A program made the position numbers and the translations under genes. A stretch of 63,872 nt of DNA, the filler included, from Acidimicrobiia bacterium (GTDB taxonomy: Bacteria > Actinomycetota > Acidimicrobiia > Spongiisociales > CAZKJJ01): assembly GCA_046759765.1 (NCBI GenBank). It is 9 parts of 9 records of this genome, joined end to end, with 100 filler letters (N's around TTAATTAATTAA, not from the genome) between each part and the next. Parts side by side here need not be neighbours in the genome. Positions count along the whole stretch, not along the records: positions 43,399 to 50,306 come from JBHICV010000133.1; 8 more parts are not named here. One strand, 5' to 3'. Position 1 is the stretch's first letter. The number at the start of each line of letters is the position of its first letter. The notes below the pieces were generated by a model. That model searched no databases. It was not told where the DNA came from and saw nothing but the letters and a program-made list of their open reading frames with translations. Shown here piece after piece: positions 7,190-57,196 of the stretch.

Positions 7190-7289
7190 NNNNNNNNNNN
7201 NNNNNNNNNNNNNNNNNNNNNNNNNNNNNNNNNTTAATTAATTAANNNNNNNNNNNNNNNNNNNNNNNNNNNNNNNNNNNNNNNNNNNN
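7190..7289. other. Artificial contig spacer
   Basis: N44-TTAATTAATTAA-N44. Confidence 0.99.
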
Positions 7290-10056: not shown

Positions 10057-12441
10057 ATGACTCGCTGGTTTGTCGCGGCTGCAGCCATCGGCATCCTGGC
10101 CGGAGCGTGCACCGTTGATCCGATCGACGACCCAGGGCTCGGAAGCCGGGGCCTGACCACGGTTGTCTTCGCCGCTGATGGCTCGGTTCTCGCCCAGTGG
10201 CATGCCCAGGAGGACCGCGCGCTGGTCAGCTACGGGGAGATTCCTCGGCATCTGGTGGACGCGGTGGTCGCGATCGAAGACGAGCGGTTCTGGGCCCATC
10301 CCGGCATCGACATTCGGGCAGTGGCCCGAGCCCTGGTTGCCAATCTCCAGGAGGGCGGTGTAGTTCAGGGCGGCTCGACCATCACCCAGCAGTACCTAAA
10401 GAACGTAGTGCTGACCCCGGAACTGACCCTCGATCGGAAGCTGACTGAGGCCGCCTTGGCGCTTCGTCTCGAGGAAGGTCTCAGCAAGGAGCAGATCCTC
10501 GAGCGCTATCTCAACACTGTCTACTTCGGGGACGGCGCTTACGGGGTTGGCGCCGCCTCCGCGCACTACTTCGGCAAGTCGGTGTCTCTTCTCAGCCTGG
10601 ACCAGTCGGCTCTTCTGGCGGGCCTGATCCGATCACCTGCGACCTACGACCCGTTCGTGGATCCCGATGCGGCGTTGGGGCGTCGACGTGTCGTTCTCGA
10701 CAAGATGGTCGCGCTTGGCTACCTCACTGAGAGCGACGCGCGCAGCGCGGACAGGGAGCCTCTTCGGTTGGCCGAGAGGACGCCGCCGAGCCGATCTCGC
10801 TTCCCTTACTTCACGGAAGAGGTGAAGCGGCAACTCCTAGCAGACCCGGCGCTGGGCGAGACGGTGACCGATCGCTATCAAGCGCTCTTCGAAGGCGGGC
10901 TGCGCATCTATACCACTCTCGACCCCGTCGCTCAGGAGGCGGCCCGAGCTGCCATCGACACCGTTGTGGACGGTGAAGACCTTCCGTATGTGGCCCTGGC
11001 GTCGATTGACCCGCGCACCGGCTACGTCCGCGCCCTGATCGGAGGACGCGATTTCTACGCACCCGATGATCCGGTCGCGCAGTTCAACCTGGCCACTCAA
11101 GGCGAGCGACAGCCAGGATCGGCTTTCAAGCCGTTTGCGCTGGCGGCGGCTCTCGAGACTGGCGTGCCTTTGACCCAGGTGATAGAGGCCGGACGGCAAG
11201 TCGTAGTCGAGACCGACTCGCGGCCATGGGTGGTCGACAACTACAACGGGGCCAGCTTCCCCGACCTGACGCTCTTGGAAGCAACGGTGTTCTCGGTCAA
11301 CGTCGTGTATGCGCGATTGGTCGACCGGATCGGCCCCGAGGGCGTGGCTGACGTGGCGGAGGCTGCCGGCATCACGAAGAAGCTGGACCGGTACCACGCG
11401 GTGGCGCTTGGAAGCGAAGAGGTATCAGTGCTGGATATGGCGTCCGCGTTTGGGACCTTCGCGGCCGACGGAACCCATATCACGCCGTCACTTGTCACGA
11501 GCATCGACACGCATGAGGGCGTGAACATCTACAAGAACGTGCCGGTGGTCACCCATGCGTTCGATCGGGAGGTTGCTCAGCAAGTCACTGCGGCCTTAAC
11601 CGAGGTCGTACGGAGAGGGACGGGTCAGCAAGCCCGCATCGGCCGTCCCGTGGCAGGTAAGACGGGTACGTCCCAGAACCACCGCGACGCCTGGTTCGTC
11701 GGCTACACGCCCGAGCTGGCCACAGCGGTCTGGGTCGGTTACCCACAGCCGACGCCGATGGTGCCTCCCCAGACCCCGTTTCGTATCACTGGAGGCACCT
11801 GGCCGGCTCAGATCTGGTCGAGATACTCGGCCGCAGCCCTAGCGTCTACCGTTCCGAGTCAGCTGGCGTTAGCGGAAGGACTCGGCGAGGTGACGGTCGA
11901 GGTCGACCTTTCCACTGGCTTCGTCGCCGGGCCTTACTGCCCGCGGGAGCATGTCCAATCGATTCAGATGCCGGCCGATGCGGTCCCAACGGTCGTGTGT
12001 CCGATTCATAACCCGTCCGGAGTGGTGGCGGCGGGTTCCGGCGACGTCCCTGATGTAATCGGCATGAACATCGAGGATGCGGTCGGAGTCATACAAGACG
12101 CCGGATTTCAGACTCGTGTGCAGTGGTCGGGCGGTGGCAACTTGGCCCCGGGGACGGTCTTCAATCAGGATCCGTCGCCCGGCTTCCCCGCGCAAACCGG
12201 CACCGCAATTCGCCTCACCTTGGCGGGTCCCGAACCAGGATCTGTCATTCCCTCCATCCTGGGCTTCCAAGTGGACCACGCGCTCTCGGAGTTGGACCAG
12301 ATCGGGGTCCAGGCGCACGTCGTGATCGAGTCCGAGTCGGATCCTGCTGACGCGGCCCGACGGACCGGGATGGTGTGGAAACAGGAGCCAGCCCCGGGTA
12401 GTCCCGCGGAAGGAGCGGTAACTCTGTGGGCTAACCCTTGA
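10057..12441 (+). CDS. Class A penicillin-binding protein (transglycosylase-transpeptidase) with two C-terminal PASTA domains
   Basis: EDERFWAHPG, GGSTITQQ, RKLTE, YLNTVYFG; SAFK, SVN, KTG. Confidence 0.93.
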   Translation: MTRWFVAAAAIGILAGACTVDPIDDPGLGSRGLTTVVFAADGSVLAQWHAQEDRALVSYGEIPRHLVDAVVAIEDERFWAHPGIDIRAVARALVANLQEGGVVQGGSTITQQYLKNVVLTPELTLDRKLTEAALALRLEEGLSKEQILERYLNTVYFGDGAYGVGAASAHYFGKSVSLLSLDQSALLAGLIRSPATYDPFVDPDAALGRRRVVLDKMVALGYLTESDARSADREPLRLAERTPPSRSRFPYFTEEVKRQLLADPALGETVTDRYQALFEGGLRIYTTLDPVAQEAARAAIDTVVDGEDLPYVALASIDPRTGYVRALIGGRDFYAPDDPVAQFNLATQGERQPGSAFKPFALAAALETGVPLTQVIEAGRQVVVETDSRPWVVDNYNGASFPDLTLLEATVFSVNVVYARLVDRIGPEGVADVAEAAGITKKLDRYHAVALGSEEVSVLDMASAFGTFAADGTHITPSLVTSIDTHEGVNIYKNVPVVTHAFDREVAQQVTAALTEVVRRGTGQQARIGRPVAGKTGTSQNHRDAWFVGYTPELATAVWVGYPQPTPMVPPQTPFRITGGTWPAQIWSRYSAAALASTVPSQLALAEGLGEVTVEVDLSTGFVAGPYCPREHVQSIQMPADAVPTVVCPIHNPSGVVAAGSGDVPDVIGMNIEDAVGVIQDAGFQTRVQWSGGGNLAPGTVFNQDPSPGFPAQTGTAIRLTLAGPEPGSVIPSILGFQVDHALSELDQIGVQAHVVIESESDPADAARRTGMVWKQEPAPGSPAEGAVTLWANP

Positions 12442-14454: not shown

Positions 14455-14554
14455 NNNNNNNNNNNNNNNNNNNNNNNNNNNNNNNNNNNNNNNNNNNNTT
14501 AATTAATTAANNNNNNNNNNNNNNNNNNNNNNNNNNNNNNNNNNNNNNNNNNNN
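14455..14554. other. Artificial contig spacer
   Basis: N44-TTAATTAATTAA-N44. Confidence 0.99.
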
Positions 14555-21719: not shown

Positions 21720-21819
21720 NNNNNNNNNNNNNNNNNNNNNNNNNNNNNNNNNNNNNNNNNNNNTTAATTAATTAANNNNNNNNNNNNNNNNNNNNNNNNN
21801 NNNNNNNNNNNNNNNNNNN
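21720..21819. other. Artificial contig spacer
   Basis: N44-TTAATTAATTAA-N44. Confidence 0.99.
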
Positions 21820-28961: not shown

Positions 28962-29061
28962 NNNNNNNNNNNNNNNNNNNNNNNNNNNNNNNNNNNNNNN
29001 NNNNNTTAATTAATTAANNNNNNNNNNNNNNNNNNNNNNNNNNNNNNNNNNNNNNNNNNNN
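28962..29061. other. Artificial contig spacer
   Basis: N44-TTAATTAATTAA-N44. Confidence 0.99.
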
Positions 29062-36190: not shown

Positions 36191-36290
36191 NNNNNNNNNN
36201 NNNNNNNNNNNNNNNNNNNNNNNNNNNNNNNNNNTTAATTAATTAANNNNNNNNNNNNNNNNNNNNNNNNNNNNNNNNNNNNNNNNNNNN
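36191..36290. other. Artificial contig spacer
   Basis: N44-TTAATTAATTAA-N44. Confidence 0.99.
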
Positions 36291-43298: not shown

Positions 43299-43398
43299 NN
43301 NNNNNNNNNNNNNNNNNNNNNNNNNNNNNNNNNNNNNNNNNNTTAATTAATTAANNNNNNNNNNNNNNNNNNNNNNNNNNNNNNNNNNNNNNNNNNNN
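43299..43398. other. Artificial contig spacer
   Basis: N44-TTAATTAATTAA-N44. Confidence 0.99.
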
Positions 43399-43585
43399 GT
43401 TCCTCCGCCGCGGGAGCCGGCTCCTCCTCCGCCGGGGCCGGCGGTGGGGCGCCGCCCGCCCACGCGGCGAGAATGTCTTCGATGCTCGTCCCTTCGGCTG
43501 AGGCCCGGGCCTCCGCCGACCGCATGACGATCTCCGGTGGCGCTCCAAGCGCGGTGGCGGCAGCAGCTAGGAGGTCGTCAGTCAT
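43399..43585 (-). CDS. N-terminal fragment of the protein coupled to the CcoN-like gene (product unknown)
   Basis: Start overlaps the upstream stop; MTDDLL...EIVMRSAEARASAEGTSIEDILAAW followed by a Pro/Ala/Glu linker. Confidence 0.7.
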
Positions 43586-45020
43586 AGGGTCCCGGCACGA
43601 GTTCTTCCTTCAGGCCCGCCTGCCCTGAAGTGACAGTTCGGTAGATGTTGTAGGCGTAGATCGAGACCCCGACCAGGATCAGGATCGAAGCCAGCGCGAT
43701 CAGCAGATAGAGCGGCTGGAGAGCGTCGGTTATCTGGTTAGCGAATCCCGCGCCCGTGTTCTGATAGGCGCCACTCTGTGCGCCTCCGATCCAGGTGTAG
43801 CCGGAGTACAGAGCCGTGCTCAGCTGAGTGGCGGCCACCACCGACACTCCCACAACGAGGTAGCGGAGCTGGCGACGAGCAAGATCCTGCGAGAACAGCC
43901 GTCGACCGAGCATGCGAGGCAGGGCATGCATCGAGAAGGCTCCGATCCACAGTGTGGCGGCGCCAAAGAGGATCGCGGTGAGCAGGCCGTCCCAAATGGG
44001 CGTGAGCCCGACGACCGTGGAAGTAGGGCGAAACGGCGCTAGCGCTTCCAGCACGGCTGCCACCAGGTAGATGACCGACCCGATCAGCGCCAGGCGAAGC
44101 GGCGGAGACTCCGACAGCAGCTCCCAACGAGGTCGCAGGGTTCCGACGAAGTTGGTGATCACCGCGGCGGCGGGAAGGACCAGCGCCAGCGACATCACGG
44201 CAGCGATCTCCTGCGACCAATCGGGGATAGGTCCCCAGATCCAGCGTCCCGGCCCGATCCAGACCGCTGCAAATGCGAGAGACCAGAATCCGATGAGCGC
44301 GATCGGACGGCTGTAGAGCGGGCTCTCGGTGATCTTGGGTATCAGGTAATAGGTCGCTGCCAGACCCATTCCCACTATCCACAGCCCCCGGAGGCCGCTG
44401 TCGAGGAAAGAAGTTTGGAGCATGTCGGTAACCCCACCGATGGGGGCGTTGCCCACTACATACAGGCCCAGGAGCCACCAGAGCCCGGCTAGTACGTACC
44501 ACAAGGACACGTACATCCCCTCCTCGGTGCTGCGCCTCACGGTCATGGTCACCACGACTGTGGGAACTGCCAACGTCCCCAACACAAAGACGTCTAGCCA
44601 GAGCGGAAACTCCGCCATGTTCCGACCCTCGGACAGCCCCAGCGCGAGGGCGACGATTCCAGCGCCGTAGACAAAAATCGAGAACCACAGGTTGGCGTTG
44701 GCGATGCGCTCGCCCCACAGCCTGGCGCCCGTGAGCCGGGGCGTCAGGTAGTAGGCCACCCCGACAAACCCCATAGTGACCCAGCCCCAAATCGCCGCGT
44801 TGAAAGCCACCGGCCGCAGGCGGCCGTAGGCGAACAGCGGATTGGTCTCCCAGAGTCCGGGGAATGGAACCTTGATCTGAAGAACCAAAAACAAAAACGC
44901 GGAGAGGACCAGAAACGGAATCGCCAAGAGCAGATGTCGCGTGGCAGCGGAATCCGGTCTCTCAGGAGCCAAAAGAGCCAGAGGCCCACGCCGCTGATCG
45001 GTTGTAGTGGCTGCGGCCAA
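43578..45020 (-). CDS. cbb3-type oxidase subunit I (CcoN)-like membrane protein lacking the metal-ligand histidines
   Basis: YGRLRP, AEFP, YVSLWY, YYLIPK, PLYS...FW, W.GP and about 12 TM helices match the CcoN fold; all His ligands substituted. Confidence 0.85.
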   Translation of the reverse strand: MAAATTTDQRRGPLALLAPERPDSAATRHLLLAIPFLVLSAFLFLVLQIKVPFPGLWETNPLFAYGRLRPVAFNAAIWGWVTMGFVGVAYYLTPRLTGARLWGERIANANLWFSIFVYGAGIVALALGLSEGRNMAEFPLWLDVFVLGTLAVPTVVVTMTVRRSTEEGMYVSLWYVLAGLWWLLGLYVVGNAPIGGVTDMLQTSFLDSGLRGLWIVGMGLAATYYLIPKITESPLYSRPIALIGFWSLAFAAVWIGPGRWIWGPIPDWSQEIAAVMSLALVLPAAAVITNFVGTLRPRWELLSESPPLRLALIGSVIYLVAAVLEALAPFRPTSTVVGLTPIWDGLLTAILFGAATLWIGAFSMHALPRMLGRRLFSQDLARRQLRYLVVGVSVVAATQLSTALYSGYTWIGGAQSGAYQNTGAGFANQITDALQPLYLLIALASILILVGVSIYAYNIYRTVTSGQAGLKEELVPGPYD

Positions 45021-45237
45021 TGCCCGCTCCTTCGTTGTCCCGGGCGGCCGCGAGCTTACCCAGCCACCAGCCGGGATTGGCCGACTTGGCCACCTCGAGC
45101 CGCTTCATTGTGCCGGGTCCCGGGACACCGAGTCAAAGGCGGACGCGCTTTAGGCTGGGAGTGGCACTTGTGCCACAATGCAGCCGCCGTTCGGGCCCGG
45201 CTCCGCTCGGCGGGAGGTCACCAAAGACAAGCGAGAG

Positions 45238-45873
45238 ATGGACGAGGCACGACGAAACATCATCGGCATCCTCGGGCTCATCCTGGGGGCCGGGCTTGTA
45301 TTCGCAGGGGTCATTTGGACCCATTTCTCGGCTCTCCCGGAGACGGAGGTGATCGACGGAGTCGAGGTTGTCGTCTCCGAAGGCATCTTCGATCTGATCC
45401 CTCGGGGCTTCATCATCGGCGACGAGACGGGTGGCCTACCGTGGTTCACGCTGGGACACCTGGTAGCGATCACAGGATCCCAGTTGATGATCGTTGGCGC
45501 GCTGTTCCTCTGGGTAGTCGGGCGTGAAATGACATGGCCGCGGGCGGCTTTCGCCGCCTTCATTGCTTGGTTCGAGCTCGTACTGATCTTCGGGACCGTT
45601 CCGTCCGAGTGGCTGAACTTGGCGCAAGGTCCTCTCGGCTGGACCTCCCAGAGGATCGCCGTCACGGTTCCATCGTGGTTGGTGCTGGGCCAGGACGTAT
45701 CGATCAGCTTCGCCGCCCTCAAGGACCTGATCTCGATTGGGTACAGCCAGTCGATGCTCGTCGCCGCGGTCGTGTTCGCCTACTTCATCCAGGGCTTTGG
45801 TCATCCCAAGCCGCCGAAGGAAGGACCCGTTGGGACGTCACAGTACGGGCGTCCCCTGGTGAGGGGGAGCTGA
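45238..45873 (+). CDS. Membrane protein of unknown function, first gene of the Rieske/cytochrome b operon
   Basis: About 4 TM helices, VPSEWL, C-terminal SQYGRPLV; TGA/ATG overlap with the ferredoxin gene. Confidence 0.75.
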   Translation: MDEARRNIIGILGLILGAGLVFAGVIWTHFSALPETEVIDGVEVVVSEGIFDLIPRGFIIGDETGGLPWFTLGHLVAITGSQLMIVGALFLWVVGREMTWPRAAFAAFIAWFELVLIFGTVPSEWLNLAQGPLGWTSQRIAVTVPSWLVLGQDVSISFAALKDLISIGYSQSMLVAAVVFAYFIQGFGHPKPPKEGPVGTSQYGRPLVRGS

Positions 45874-46325
45874 TGGCGAGAGCCGATGTCTGGTTCGAGA
45901 CCCCACCCTTCCGGGATGACTATCAGCTGGTGCTCGTCGAGGACGACTACGTCAAGTCTTCGGTCAAACCCAAGCAGTTCCTCCACATCGATCAGTCGGA
46001 GTGCATCCTCTGTGAGGGCTGTGTCGATATCTGCCCGTGGAAGTGCATCCACTACCTCTCGCTCGATGCCATTACGGATGCCAAGGATGTGGCGAACCCT
46101 GCGGTCGATGACCCTGAAGCCCAGGGTTTCTTCGTCGTAGACGAGGACGAGTGCACCCGCTGCGCGCTGTGCATCGACCGGTGCCCGACCAACGTAATCA
46201 CCCTTGGAAAGTTCGAAGGATCTCTCGCGGAGCAGGCGCTCGAGCGGGATGTGGAGATGCCCTGGTCCGTAGATACGGGTCAGAGAGACTTCAAGAACGG
46301 TTACACGTACGGGATGAGGTGGTGA
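45873..46325 (+). CDS. 2x[4Fe-4S] ferredoxin-like protein
   Basis: [12 protein letters not shown] and [12 protein letters not shown]. Confidence 0.92.
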
Positions 46326-46326
46326 G

Positions 46327-47118
46327 TTGACGACCGAGCAGAAGGAGCGCACAGGCCTCGTCCATCGGGCCAGGGAGTGGCTCGGACAGGCTTGGGATTG
46401 GTTCCAGGGGAGTCAGTTCTGGCAGAGCGTCTTCCGGCCCGGCTCCCCGTTCAAGGCCGGGTATGCCGACAGCCCCCGCAACCGCTCCTACGTGATCATG
46501 AACAACGTCCTCTATCACCTGCATCCGGTCAAGGTGAAGCGGCACGGCGTACGCCTCTCATACACCCTGTGTCTCGGTGGGCTGAGCTTCTTCCTGTTCA
46601 TCCTTCTGACGATCACCGGGATCTTCCTGATGTTCTATTACCGGCCGACCGTCGAGGCCGCCTACATCGACACTGAGGCACTATCCACCAGCGTTGCCTT
46701 CGGCTCGCTGGTCAGGAACATGCACCGATGGGGAGCGCACCTAATGGTGCTGACCGTCTTCCTTCACATGTCGAGGGTCTTCTACCACGGCGCCTACAAA
46801 CCGCCGCGGGAGTTCAACTGGGTGGTCGGTGTCGTGTTGCTCCTGCTGACACTGCTTCTTTCATTTACCGGATACCTGCTGCCCTGGGATCAGCTCGCTC
46901 TTTGGGCCGTGACCGTGGGAACCAACATGGGGAGCTTCGTCCCCGTCTTCGGCGAGCAAGTCAAGTTCGTGTTACTGGGCGCGTTCACCGTCTCCGGTCC
47001 CACGCTGCTCAGGTTCTACGTGGGTCACGTCCTCTTCTTCCCGTTCATCCTCGTGATCTTCTTGTCCGTCCACTTCTGGCGAGTCCGTAAGGACGGCGGC
47101 CTGTCGGGGCCCCTCTGA
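46327..47118 (+). CDS. Cytochrome b6-like subunit (N-terminal half of split cytochrome b)
   Basis: [13 protein letters not shown]...[21 protein letters not shown]...HF. Confidence 0.93.
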
Positions 47119-47849
47119 TGTCGGAAGTACCTGACGAGCTCCTCCGTCGTTCGGCCGAGGCCAAAGCCGTAGCCCTCGGGTTGCCGGTCGAGGAGGTCTT
47201 GGCGGAAATGCGCGCTGAGACCACAGAAAAGGTTTCCTCCGAGGAGGACGGTGGAGGGGATTCCGGGGGAGACGGCAAGGTGGCTACCTCGGTCCGTCCG
47301 ACCGAGCCGCCGGTCGCGCTTCCGGAGGGGGTGCGTACTCAGCGTCTGCTGACCGTTGTCCGAGCCAAGGCGATCCAGCAGGTCAAAGCGGAGCCCACGG
47401 ACAAGGTGAACGTCTGGCCTCATCTGTTGCTCGCCGAATTCACGGCACTGATGATCATCACCGCTTTCCTTCTTGTTCTATCGGTGATTCTGCAGGCGCC
47501 GCTGCTGGAGCTGGCCGACCCCAACAACACGCCCAACCCGGCCAAAGCTCCGTGGTACTTCCTCGGGCTCCAGGAGCTCCTCTCCTATTACGACCCTCAG
47601 ATCGCCGGTGTCATCATCCCAGGGATCATCGGGCTGCTTGGCTTGATGACAGTTCCGTACGTGGACCGAAACCCGTCCACGCGTCCCTCCGACCGCAAGT
47701 TCGCCATCCTCTTCTTCACGTTTTTCCTGGTCGGAGCAGGCACGCTGACGATGATCGGAGTCCTCTTCCGAGGTCCCGGATTCACCTTCACGATTCCCTG
47801 GGAGGACGGGATCTGGTTCGACGATCTGAAGGATTGGGTCGAATTCTGA
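47118..47849 (+). CDS. Cytochrome b subunit IV (PetD-like) with an N-terminal extension
   Basis: VWPHLL, ADPNNTPNPAKAPWYFLGLQE, 3 TM helices. Confidence 0.88.
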   Translation: MSEVPDELLRRSAEAKAVALGLPVEEVLAEMRAETTEKVSSEEDGGGDSGGDGKVATSVRPTEPPVALPEGVRTQRLLTVVRAKAIQQVKAEPTDKVNVWPHLLLAEFTALMIITAFLLVLSVILQAPLLELADPNNTPNPAKAPWYFLGLQELLSYYDPQIAGVIIPGIIGLLGLMTVPYVDRNPSTRPSDRKFAILFFTFFLVGAGTLTMIGVLFRGPGFTFTIPWEDGIWFDDLKDWVEF

Positions 47850-48760
47850 TGGAAGCTTCCCAGATCCTCCTGATTGGTGTTGCGGCCGTCGCCGTGTTGG
47901 GCGCCGTGGCTGTCTTCGCAATCGCCTACCGCAGAGAGGGCGGAACCAAGCCCTGGAGGAGCAGGGTCGAGCGGAAGGCTGTCCGTGAGGACAAATCGGC
48001 GCCGCCCGAGCCGGTTGTGACCGTTGCCCCGGAAGCGGAAGAGACAATAGAGATCGCGGTGGAAGTCCGTGAGGAACCTCCGGCTGCGGTCACCACTGCT
48101 ATCGCGGTGCGAGAGGTCACCTACGAGGAGGTTCCTGCTGATGAGATGGGCGTCACCCGGCGCCAGTTCTTCAACCGGGCGCTCCTGGCCACATTCGGCG
48201 CCTACTCGGTTGGCCTTCTCATCGCGATGGTCGGGTTCCTTTGGCCGCGGCTTAGAGGCGGCTTTGGAGGTGACATCGACGCAGGTGACGTGCAGGCATT
48301 GCGGACCTCCGTTTTCAATCAGGACGGCTCGATCCAGCCCTTGTTCATCCCGGAGGCGCGGGCATACGTTGTTCCGTTTCCCACTTCGGAGATTGCGACG
48401 TCACAGTTCGATCCTCCCAAGATCCAAGGGAAGACCGTGGTGGCGGAGGGTTTGTCCGCGCTCTTTCAGACGTGCGTCCATCTGGGTTGCCGCGTCCCGT
48501 GGTGTTCGACCTCCCAGGGTTTCGAGTGCCCATGCCACGGATCGCGATACAACTCCACCGGAGAGTATGAGGGCGGCCCCGCGCCGCGGAACCTCGACCG
48601 TTTCGAGGTCGAGGTGAATGCCTCCAATCGCTTCATTATCAGGACAGGGTCGCGTGTCGGGACCAGCAGAGCGCCCAGCAAGAGCGTTCCCTACCCGCTG
48701 GGCCGCTCGTGCATCACTATCGGGTTAGGAGAAGGCGAGGACGGCGGGGAGCGCGGCTAG
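47849..48760 (+). CDS. Rieske [2Fe-2S] protein
   Basis: CVHLGC and CPCHGSRY; internal twin-arginine motif TRRQFF. Confidence 0.94.
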   Translation: MEASQILLIGVAAVAVLGAVAVFAIAYRREGGTKPWRSRVERKAVREDKSAPPEPVVTVAPEAEETIEIAVEVREEPPAAVTTAIAVREVTYEEVPADEMGVTRRQFFNRALLATFGAYSVGLLIAMVGFLWPRLRGGFGGDIDAGDVQALRTSVFNQDGSIQPLFIPEARAYVVPFPTSEIATSQFDPPKIQGKTVVAEGLSALFQTCVHLGCRVPWCSTSQGFECPCHGSRYNSTGEYEGGPAPRNLDRFEVEVNASNRFIIRTGSRVGTSRAPSKSVPYPLGRSCITIGLGEGEDGGERG

Positions 48761-48762
48761 GC

Positions 48763-50306
48763 GTGGAGAACATCATCATCCTGGTGGCCCTGGGCGCGAT
48801 CGCCTGGCTGGCATTCATCGTGGCGACGTCGGTTGGTGGTCCGGGTCGTGAAGGCATACCCAGGAACCTGTCCATCTATCGGACGGACGAAGAGCTCGAG
48901 AGCCGTCGCCTAGAAAGAACGATGGCAACCGCGGTCGTCTTCTCCGCCTTCCTCGCCCTGGCGATCCCTCTCTACTACCTGAGTGAGGAGGATCGGCAAG
49001 CCGGGTTCGACGAGGAGTTCCTGGCGGCGTCAATCGCCCGCGGCGAGATCTTCTTCGGTTCCACCGATCCCACCAGAGCATTTCGGTGCGACTCATGCCA
49101 CGGTCCGGAAGGCGTGGGTGGCAGTGCTCAATTCGTCGAGCCGCGCTCCGGTATTGCCGTGCTGTGGACGGCACCTTCCCTCAACGATGTCTTCTACCGG
49201 TACACGGAAGACGAAATCAGATTCTGGATCACGTTCGGAAGGGCCAATACGCCCATGCCTGCCTGGGGTCTCGAAGGAGGAGGCCCTCTCGGCGAGCAGT
49301 CGATCCAGGATCTCATCAACTACATCCGCACCTTCCAGATCAGCCAAGAGCAAGCCTTGGCCAAGATCGAGCCGGCGGTCACTCTGGAGCTGAGCAAGAT
49401 CGACCGCGGCGACGAGATCCTGGCACAGGCACTCGCCGAGCAGGAGCTCCAGAAGAGCGTTCTAGAGAAATCCGAGGACGCCTTGACGGTCGTCGCGTCC
49501 GTGGCACAGGAGGCACAGGACGTCCTGGACCACGCCGGCGAGGGTCGGGACACCGACCAGGACGGGTTGTCGGACACCTCCGAGGTGCGGCTCACCGAGC
49601 TGACCAACTCCCTCTATGTCGTCGAGGTCGAGGTCGACGAAGACACCGGCGAAGAAACCGTGACCATCAGCGGATCGCTCTCGCAGCTTCTCACTCCCGA
49701 GGAGGCCGAAGCCCTGGAGATGAGCGGGATAGGTGTGACACTCGATCCGCTCAACCCGGAAACCACCGCCGGGACCGCCGATCTAAGGGCGGCCAGGACA
49801 TCGGTGGCCAACCTGCAGGCGTTAGAGAGAAACCTGCGGGTTGGGGTCGAAAACTTTCAGGGGCTGATTGTCGGGATGGAGGCCGGCATCACTTTCCTCA
49901 ACGCCTCGGCGGCGGAAAGGCTGTGGCAGCCCGACTTCGAGGCCATTGCCGAAGCAAGCTTCGATGGACAGATCGACGATGCGAGGCGGGCCGTTGGTCT
50001 CTTTAAGGCCTACTGTGCCCGCTGCCACAACTCGAACTGGTCGGCAGGGCTCCCATATACGTTGGAGCTGGCCTCGGGAGGTATCGGCCCGGCTCTCTTC
50101 GAGGGGCGAGTCAATATTCAGTTTCAGCGGCCCGCTGACGAGCTAGACGCCGCCGATCCGCTGGTGGAGTTCATCAAGACGGGTACGTCCTCGGCAAAGC
50201 GTTACGGCGTCAACGGGATGGGAACCGGACGTATGCCCGCCTTCGGGGCGGTACTCTCCCAGGACGACCTAGAAATGATTGCCGCCATGTTGAGGGGACT
50301 CGGCCG
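48763..50306 (+). CDS. Membrane-anchored diheme cytochrome c (end truncated by contig)
   Basis: Two TM helices; CDSCH...MPAW and CARCH...MPAF. Confidence 0.9.
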
Positions 50307-50406
50307 NNNNNNNNNNNNNNNNNNNNNNNNNNNNNNNNNNNNNNNNNNNNTTAATTAATTAANNNNNNNNNNNNNNNNNNNNNNNNNNNNNNNNNNNNNN
50401 NNNNNN
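50307..50406. other. Artificial contig spacer
   Basis: N44-TTAATTAATTAA-N44. Confidence 0.99.
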
Positions 50407-57096: not shown

Positions 57097-57196
57097 NNNN
57101 NNNNNNNNNNNNNNNNNNNNNNNNNNNNNNNNNNNNNNNNTTAATTAATTAANNNNNNNNNNNNNNNNNNNNNNNNNNNNNNNNNNNNNNNNNNNN
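57097..57196. other. Artificial contig spacer
   Basis: N44-TTAATTAATTAA-N44. Confidence 0.99.

Follow-up and report, generated by a model that had tools for sequence, protein, structure and literature searches.

We describe here a homologue of CcoN, the catalytic subunit of the C-family (cbb3) haem-copper oxidases (HCOs), that has lost every histidine ligand of its metal cofactors. The protein, for which we use the name CcoN*, is encoded on the minus strand at 43578–45020 of a 63,872-nucleotide stretch of DNA (the window) from an Acidimicrobiia bacterium (GenBank assembly GCA_046759765.1), and it is almost certainly a conserved, ligand-less, non-oxidase derivative of CcoN. Its sequence and modeled structure point to descent from a C-family HCO catalytic subunit with the 12-helix fold kept. 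Because no ligand remains for haem b, haem b3 or CuB and the cross-link Tyr has been lost as well, neither O2 nor NO reduction is predicted for CcoN*, and the protein is presumably without cofactors. The explanation that best accounts for the observations overall, and which we consider fairly probable, is that CcoN* would be a redox-dead scaffold for c-type cytochromes beside a Rieske/b6 complex.

The open reading frame (ORF) of CcoN* runs uninterrupted for 480 codons from a TTG start that sits 8 nt past a GGAG, and its product has 12 transmembrane helices. The protein matches Pfam COX1 (PF00115) at 128 bits (E 4e-37, cut-off 34.8), whereas its score against TIGR00780, the ccoN equivalog model, is 162 bits and does not reach the 583.15-bit threshold. 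The solved structures closest in sequence are CcoN chains (9g6b_A, 9e-27, and 3mk7_A, 5e-25; also 9g83_t, 6xkw_n and 8smr_E), and the only non-oxidase matches among solved structures were TRPV6 chains with an insignificant E near 0.05. An AlphaFold2 model built with 38 clade members in the alignment shows twelve long helices, with a predicted local distance difference test score (pLDDT) of 89.2 and a predicted template modelling score (pTM) of 0.91. In Foldseek this model superimposes on 3mk7_A with template modelling (TM) scores of 0.88/0.90; the top seven matches are all CcoN chains (TM scores 0.86–0.91), and NorB of cNOR, the nitric oxide reductase that depends on cytochrome c, ranks after the cbb3 structures, with an E of about 1e-11. 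By AlphaFold2, Foldseek and PF00115 alike, CcoN* has a 12-helix HCO subunit I fold that is most similar to CcoN.

With respect to the metal sites, none of the six His ligands (two for low-spin haem b, one for high-spin haem b3 and three for CuB) is present in CcoN*. In HMMER and MAFFT alignments GRLRPLH has become GRLRPVA, which places A72 at a ligand position; WYGHNAVG has become FLDSGLRG, with S208 at the ligand position; and WAGPHH has become WIGPGR (AVWIGPGR), with G258 and R259 in place of the paired ligands. The cross-link Tyr, seven residues upstream of WIGPGR and kept in all 51 His-bearing relatives, is A252. The GHxH pair of transmembrane helix 10 aligns within DGLLTAI, where the two methods differ in register by two residues (T348/I350 in HMMER, L346/T348 in MAFFT); the loss of this pair is nevertheless independent of the alignment register because residues 339–355 contain no His at all. 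The arrangement found in NorB, in which there are haem His residues and FeB has three His and one Glu, is also absent, as the aligned positions of CcoN* lack His. An earlier note on this DNA had anticipated much of this picture, describing an intact 480-residue frame with a ribosome-binding site that aligns by eye with cbb3 subunit I, and the analysis bears it out: the frame lies on the minus strand with its TTG and GGAG, the alignment agrees with the PF00115, 9g6b_A and 3mk7_A matches and with the AlphaFold2 fold, and each substitution that it named (A72, S208, G258/R259, L346/T348 and the cross-link Tyr) is present in the alignments. The structure prediction that it suggested returned the 12-helix CcoN fold (TM scores of 0.88/0.90 to 3mk7_A), with CcoN chains, rather than an unrelated membrane family, as the best solved relatives. 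It also correctly placed the only two remaining His, H29 and H365, off the ligand positions.

Comparison of 69 His-less with 51 His-bearing sequences separates what the clade has kept from what it has given up. In total, 38 positions are conserved in both groups, including GRLRP (66–70), Y91/P94/R95, R164, Y224/Y225, P234, GFW (244–246), P264/W268, T294/W299, R331/T340 and P368, and a further 70 that real oxidases conserve, among them the Tyr and the six His, are free to vary in CcoN* and its His-less relatives. The clade has also acquired conserved residues of its own, namely D143, E166, K229, R373 and R386 (the last a Trp in oxidases), and in addition has a short stretch inserted ahead of transmembrane helix 12 (G417, G423) and a C-terminal tail (G466, E472, L474). 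Binding of haem or another metal through non-His ligands, with some redox chemistry kept, might be entertained on the grounds that Met, Lys or Tyr haem ligation occurs in some HCO relatives (passages of PMC11214002 mention His/Met and His/Lys low-spin haems) and that several Tyr are conserved (Y90, Y91, Y224, Y225). Those Tyr, however, are equally conserved in real oxidases and lie at cytoplasmic helix ends, and the residues at the six ligand positions are variable within the clade (A/T/M, S/A/G/F, G/A/S, R/Q/D, L/T/V and T/Y/V). Moreover, conservation of His, Met or Cys nowhere reaches 85% among the 69 His-less sequences; the best-conserved His are H29 at just 0.62, H365 at 0.51 and H384 at 0.51. 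Alternative conserved ligands, which the earlier note had named as a possible objection, were thus not found at that level for these three residue types, and we regard metal binding of this kind as very unlikely.

The loss of ligands is a property of a large, old clade. A homologue search against 5.8 billion proteins listed 120 matches, the entry of CcoN* itself included, of which 69 carry none of the six His, 50 carry all six and one, truncated, carries five; the His-less relatives among these matches range from 85% down to about 31–33% identity to CcoN*. In a FastTree phylogeny of 116 rows (five were left out, a duplicate and four shorter than 430 residues), His-less and His-bearing sequences are separated by one change of state on a branch with support of 100, and CcoN* groups with P0003, P0004, P0005 and P0006 (support 100). 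The site-heterogeneous LG+C20 model in IQ-TREE, applied to 36 chosen rows, recovered the same single split with a Shimodaira–Hasegawa-like approximate likelihood ratio test (SH-aLRT) value of 100. This split is compatible with a single loss of the ligands in this sample, the root of the tree not being known. Nei–Gojobori ratios of nonsynonymous to synonymous substitution (dN/dS) for 179 His-less pairs of 70–97% identity have a median of 0.091 and a maximum of 0.356, and the CcoN* gene compared with that of locus L004 gives 0.117, with dS saturated.

These data leave virtually no room for the CcoN* gene being a decaying pseudogene or an assembly or sequencing error. Such a reading could draw on the fact that the gene comes from a single contig of modest depth in a metagenome-assembled genome (MAG), but it is refuted by the intact frame, by relatives from 85% to about 33% identity that share the loss, by a dN/dS of about 0.09, and by contigs from two further runs of the same study, which carry the gene with 0–2 base differences per piece and no indels. 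The earlier note had argued for a repurposed, cofactor-free protein rather than decay, and the homologue check that it called for indeed returned a His-less clade under strong purifying selection with a fixed gene neighbourhood; close homologues that keep the His, which would have spoken for recent decay, did not appear, as relatives from 85% identity down are also His-less. Together with the lack of a conserved His, Met or Cys as replacement ligand, these comparative findings support its view.

In terms of distribution, a locus scan restricted to one genome per species returned 80 loci, of which 71 lack all six His, one (L031) has a single His at an aligned position and eight have all six; the 72 loci that include L031 lie apart from the His-bearing oxidases across one well-supported branch. 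The eight His-bearing loci include Bacteroidota, Ignavibacterium, cyanobacteria and Bryobacterales, and the His-less loci are titled Acidimicrobiia or Actinomycetota almost throughout. A few His-less loci are labelled Acidobacteriota yet are 93–97% identical to Acidimicrobiia-labelled ones. Within a class sample of 301 genomes, 76, one of them unpublished (G228), have a match to CcoN* at E ≤ 1e-20, a count by sequence similarity, and nearly all of these fall in CcoN*'s own order (37/38 in family f2, 17/21 in f4, 7/7 in f5 and 7/11 in f3).

We turn now to the proteins encoded with CcoN*. The window consists of nine size-ordered contigs (C127–C135) of a 2.7-Mb, 308-contig MAG, joined by eight linkers, each N44 + TTAATTAATTAA + N44 (7190–7289, 14455–14554, 21720–21819, 28962–29061, 36191–36290, 43299–43398, 50307–50406 and 57097–57196), so that gene order across linkers is meaningless. 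Because contig C133 spans 43399–50306, the true neighbours of CcoN* are confined to that interval. Downstream of CcoN*, on the same minus strand, lies the 5′ part (62 codons, 43399–43585) of a CcoO-like gene that ends at the contig end; an 8-nt overlap (ATGACTGA) joins its ATG to the CcoN* stop. No Pfam family matches the 62-residue fragment, which corresponds to the three-helix domain that CcoO-like proteins in relatives conserve at their N terminus. In 50 loci the position downstream of CcoN* holds an ORF of 240–300 residues with exactly one CxxCH, and 39 of these also have an ORF of 300–375 residues with one CxxCH, a second mono-haem cytochrome c, both counts being selected by those size and CxxCH criteria; the His-less loci outside these counts stop short of the gene, contain interrupted frames (e.g., L009, L014, L016 and L018) or were unmatched by the 62-residue query. 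The first downstream protein matches Pfam FixO (PF02433) in 24/24 aligned relatives (best E 3.8e-22), all of which keep an invariant C169, C172 and H173 (GCxxCH) as well as the RxGPDL motif. Both the CcoO-like partner and the second cytochrome c keep their haem-c sites, and it is these relatives that reveal the mono-haem CcoO/FixO partner of CcoN*, whose gene is represented here by just its initial 62 codons. Fused forms were also encountered: P0058 and P0120 are His-less CcoN proteins joined to a FixO domain (PF02433), P0058 with PF00034 in addition, and many of the class-level matches lie in open frames of 640–930 residues (e.g., G061, G270 and G207), which suggests CcoN*–CcoO fusions in some families.

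A further shared feature is the segment with which both downstream proteins open, a domain of about 45 residues (consensus RSAxARA...G..v.evLaAWAGG) that is modeled as three short helices with a pLDDT of about 90 and is followed by a Pro/Ala-rich (Pro/Ala/Glu-rich) linker and then one transmembrane helix. The CcoO-like model as a whole has a pLDDT of 71, its cytochrome domain being poorly modeled without haem. No Pfam family matches the three-helix domain, and a weak copy of it is carried by the subunit IV-like protein of the neighbouring operon (47118–47250, plus strand; hidden Markov model E 3.7e-6). In locus L012 the domain spans 11442–11580. It also heads a 398-residue polytopic membrane protein without CxxCH elsewhere in the same genome (C59:9073–10269, minus strand), whose gene lies past the caa3 oxidase cluster at a distance of about 2 kb. 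The domain may be a cytoplasmic docking module common to respiratory membrane proteins.

The retention of a CcoO-like partner is mirrored in the predicted complex. We modeled the CcoN* homologue of L012 together with the transmembrane and cytochrome part of the CcoO-like protein of the same locus, and the pair reached an interaction prediction score from aligned errors (ipSAE) of 0.90 (runs 0.90, 0.92 and 0.90), compared with 0.00 for the best control. In the calibration of the tool, the mark was reached by 116/157 solved complexes and 2/215 mismatched pairs, counts that apply only approximately here because the pair was run with our own alignments. The runs agree on at least 92% of contacts, with a partner pLDDT of at least 83. 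At the predicted interface the GRLRP motif of CcoN* contacts the GCxxCH motif of the partner, and the loop around T340 contacts R207 of RxGPDL; the clade-specific loop before helix 12 is also included. On the strength of this model the CcoN*–CcoO interface looks intact, a result that speaks for likeness to the known complex rather than for binding by this particular copy.

On the other side of CcoN*, a 157-bp divergent intergenic region (45021–45177) separates it from a plus-strand operon for a Rieske/b6 complex. The first gene (45178–45873) encodes a membrane protein of 231 residues with hydrophobic stretches in its translation and no Pfam family. It is followed by a 150-residue 2x[4Fe-4S] ferredoxin-like protein of the Fer4 Pfam families (45873–46325), whose ATG at 45873 has a GGGGGAG ribosome-binding site and overlaps the upstream stop; because neither a signal peptide nor a transmembrane segment is seen in its sequence, this protein is probably cytoplasmic. 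Next come a cytochrome b6-like protein, the N-terminal half of cytochrome b (46327–47118; PF00033, E 3e-46), a subunit IV-like protein resembling the C-terminal half of cytochrome b, or PetD (47118–47849; PF00032, E 1e-8), and a Rieske iron–sulfur protein with a TRRQFF twin-arginine motif (47849–48760, start ATG 47849; PF00355). The last gene, for a membrane-anchored dihaem cytochrome c (48709–50306; PF13442 and PF00034; CDSCH and CARCH), is open at the contig end, and its start is uncertain (GTG at 48709, 48763 or 48784). The longest ORFs of the Fer4 protein (263 residues) and the Rieske protein (402 residues) overlapped upstream genes and were trimmed to 45873 and 47849. The ORFs at 44934–45527 and 45150–45722 were rejected as other-frame overlaps of real genes without any family, and the phmmer matches of the former in relatives as shadows of conserved genes. 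For a b6-type complex, it is unusual to have an iron–sulfur subunit on what is presumably the cytoplasmic side.

This arrangement is a constant feature of the clade. In a six-frame search of the 80 loci with the neighbour proteins of CcoN*, the Fer4, cytochrome b6, subunit IV, Rieske and cytochrome c proteins were found on the opposite strand in 53/53 His-less loci whose upstream flank measures 6.5 kb or more, the 231-residue membrane protein has a homologue in 52/53 of the same loci, and the Fer4 gene is present in 66/66 His-less loci whose flank extends to 1.5 kb or more. The divergent Rieske/b6 layout occurs in 0/8 His-bearing loci. One of these, an Ignavibacterium MAG (L029:5034–11365), has a His-bearing ccoN about 3 kb downstream of Rieske–cytochrome b genes on the same strand, and this locus exemplifies a real cbb3 oxidase encoded beside a bc complex. 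Strict co-inheritance with the b6 operon could also be expected if CcoN* served the assembly or stability of the Rieske/b6 complex or the caa3 oxidase without being a permanent subunit, and pseudoenzymes often turn into regulators or chaperones. Here and in relatives, however, CcoN* is joined to the genes of two haem-c proteins by stop/start overlaps that indicate co-translation, and the full CcoO interface is kept in the model; because of these two features CcoN* resembles a member of a stable complex, and an assembly role appears a distinctly poor prospect.

The remainder of the respiratory chain was considered in the assembly, which is 92% complete. The single PF00033 cytochrome b match in the genome is the gene beside CcoN*, and by this survey the adjoining Rieske/b6 complex appears to be its only complex III candidate. 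There are two further COX1 genes, both of the A family: one lies in a ctaC (COX2–cytochrome c fusion)–ctaD–ctaE–ctaF–ctaG cluster beside a haem O synthase-like UbiA gene, and the other in a COX2–COX1–COX3 cluster followed by a cupredoxin. Given these two clusters, the real O2 reductases are therefore of the A family, fed by c-type haem or copper proteins. A few kilobases upstream of the second cluster (locus L088; C81:1071–2684, minus strand) is a gene for a 537-residue protein in which a pair of universal stress protein domains occurs together with Rieske, Fer4_19 and CDGSH iron-binding domains. Two large proteins in the window were considered as neighbours of CcoN* and rejected, as they lie on other contigs beyond N linkers: a 1130-residue cyclase/AAA protein on C134 (50351–53743) and a 1115-residue outer-membrane barrel on C132 (39951–43298, plus strand). 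The latter consists of CarboxypepD_reg and OMP_b-brl_4 domains and has a GC content of 0.605, compared with a genome mean of 0.631. The relatives of this bin are titled Acidimicrobiia, a monoderm group, and the barrel may reflect bin contamination or mislabelled taxonomy.

Of the roles listed in the earlier note (structural subunit, channel or transporter, assembly factor), that of structural subunit is the best supported by sequence and modeling, and we favor it because a CcoO-like haem-c partner is retained, a CcoN–CcoO interface is predicted and the Rieske/b6 operon is linked. In mechanistic terms, CcoN* would be a membrane subunit to which the CcoO-like partner remains bound and, in relatives, another mono-haem cytochrome c as well. 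The Rieske/b6 complex would oxidize quinol, electrons would exit via the dihaem cytochrome c, and they would then travel through haem-c domains, for which CcoN* provides the platform, to the caa3-type oxidase and the second A-family oxidase. CcoN* itself would act as an anchor or docking scaffold, possibly a relic of a bc–cbb3 supercomplex that remained after oxidase chemistry had been given up. We hold this specific role as a cytochrome-c scaffold or relay to be slightly favored by the balance of probability; the physical association of CcoN* with the b6 complex, as well as the direction and acceptor of electron flow, are what we infer from these relationships.

Several observations weigh against this scaffold model. 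The adjacency of CcoN* to the b6 operon is, as a genomic observation, co-inheritance and not contact, and the CcoN* unit and the b6 operon are 3–5 kb apart in L007, L009, L011 and L013. The dN/dS pairs and the loci are mutually related and do not constitute independent samples. The modeled complex may owe its high score to solved cbb3 structures that the predictor has learned. When the assembly was searched with the CcoO-like protein of a relative, the rest of the CcoO-like gene did not turn up, the matches being confined to the 62-codon fragment and an unrelated carrier of the N-terminal domain; nor was the second cytochrome c recovered from this assembly. In addition, the stretch expected to supply the distal haem ligand in the CcoO-like protein is not constant (MP, HP and QP), so that its redox role is not uniform, and the axial ligation, and hence the potential, of its haem c may differ between lineages. 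The variant segments read LMPSF, GGHP and LQPAY (alignment columns ~280–300; L012:11442–12236 and relatives). Finally, several polar residues that real CcoN conserves in its cytoplasmic half are kept in CcoN* (Y224, Y225 and T294; partly S247, N290 and Y318), and this retention would also fit a proton or ion path.

This last point bears most directly on the idea that CcoN* is a non-redox module, conducting protons or ions or conformationally coupled to the Rieske/b6 complex, with the cytochromes c secondary. The charged residues particular to the clade (D143, E166, K229, R373 and R386) and its conserved cytoplasmic C-terminal tail would suit such a function alongside the retained C-family residues just listed. 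On the other hand, the retained periplasmic motifs (GRLRP, P264/W268 and R331/T340) map to the predicted haem-c contact, the partner cytochromes are as well conserved as CcoN* itself, and no transporter-like motif or family match was found for CcoN*; we accordingly judge a primary role in ion conduction improbable. A more ambitious proposal would make CcoN* a working part of a new respiratory supercomplex that serves as the sole complex III of an entire order within the Acidimicrobiia. It would comprise a Rieske/b6 core, to whose n-side a cytoplasmic 2[4Fe-4S] subunit is attached, and a pseudo-cbb3 module whose two haem-c domains would wire the core to the A-family oxidases, with the shared N-terminal three-helix domains tying the parts together from the cytoplasmic side; in its boldest version CcoN* would also keep a gated proton path, such that a redox-dead scaffold would aid energy conservation. 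We put this forward as a speculation that is rather unlikely to hold, and retain the cytochrome scaffold as the working interpretation.

Within the literature that we searched, the CcoN* clade would constitute an unnamed pseudo-oxidase branch of the C family: a full-text search, which covered material outside subscription journals and the supplementary files of bioRxiv, turned up no account of a His-less CcoN family. Passages of PMC4122944 report a split cytochrome b in an Acidimicrobidae strain, and those passages are silent on CcoN. Members of the clade are named "cbb3-type cytochrome c oxidase subunit I" in the source databases, and metabolic reconstructions from MAGs read such names as high-affinity O2 respiration, an inference that would be wrong for the CcoN* lineage. 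Passages of PMC8357290 credit several MAGs with cbb3 oxidases from annotation. His ligands are treated as invariant across haem-copper oxidases in PMC11214002. A large clade under purifying selection that lacks every His ligand shows a non-catalytic use of the HCO scaffold. The CcoN* module also offers a testable model for the wiring between complex III and the oxidases in the monoderm Acidimicrobiia, and it bears on how parts of a supercomplex persist once catalysis is lost.

Among known systems, the closest counterparts of CcoN* are the CcoN/FixN subunits of cbb3 oxidases from Pseudomonas stutzeri (3MK7/5DJQ), Rhodobacter capsulatus (6XKW) and P. aeruginosa (8SMR), with TM scores of 0.86–0.91 at ~21–23% identity. 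The two share the motifs GRLRP, YYxxPR, GFW and PDW, the CcoN–CcoO interface (predicted for the L012 pair) and, in relatives of CcoN*, the gene order, with a FixO/CcoO-like mono-haem gene directly downstream and then a further cytochrome c; some solved cbb3 oxidases also sit in bc–cbb3 supercomplexes, according to the entry titles of 6xkw, 8smr and 9g83. Unlike CcoN/FixN, CcoN* has its six His and cross-link Tyr replaced and scores 162 versus 583 bits against TIGR00780, its clade has the insertion before helix 12 and the conserved C-terminal tail, its partners bear the extra N-terminal three-helix domain and Pro/Ala-rich linker, and it is linked to a Rieske/b6 operon that contains a Fer4 protein. 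The nitric oxide reductases, namely cNOR NorB (3O0R_B and 4XYD_A) as well as qNOR, eNOR, sNOR and gNOR, share the superfamily fold (TM scores 0.76–0.84) and, like CcoN*, have no cross-link Tyr. These NO-reducing families nonetheless keep the His ligands of haem and FeB/CuB, whereas CcoN* lacks all of them. Where an organism lacks a soluble cytochrome c, complex III is linked to an A-family oxidase by c-type haems bound to the membrane. The actinobacterial bcc–aa3 supercomplex (7QHO, 6ADQ and 6HWH) provides a functional analogy for the proposed role, its A-family subunit I chains being distant fold matches. In the bcc–aa3 supercomplex the bridge is the dihaem QcrC of a complex with a fused cytochrome b; here, in contrast, cytochrome b is split into b6 and subunit IV, a ferredoxin-like subunit is encoded, and extra haem-c proteins would be carried on a dead oxidase subunit.

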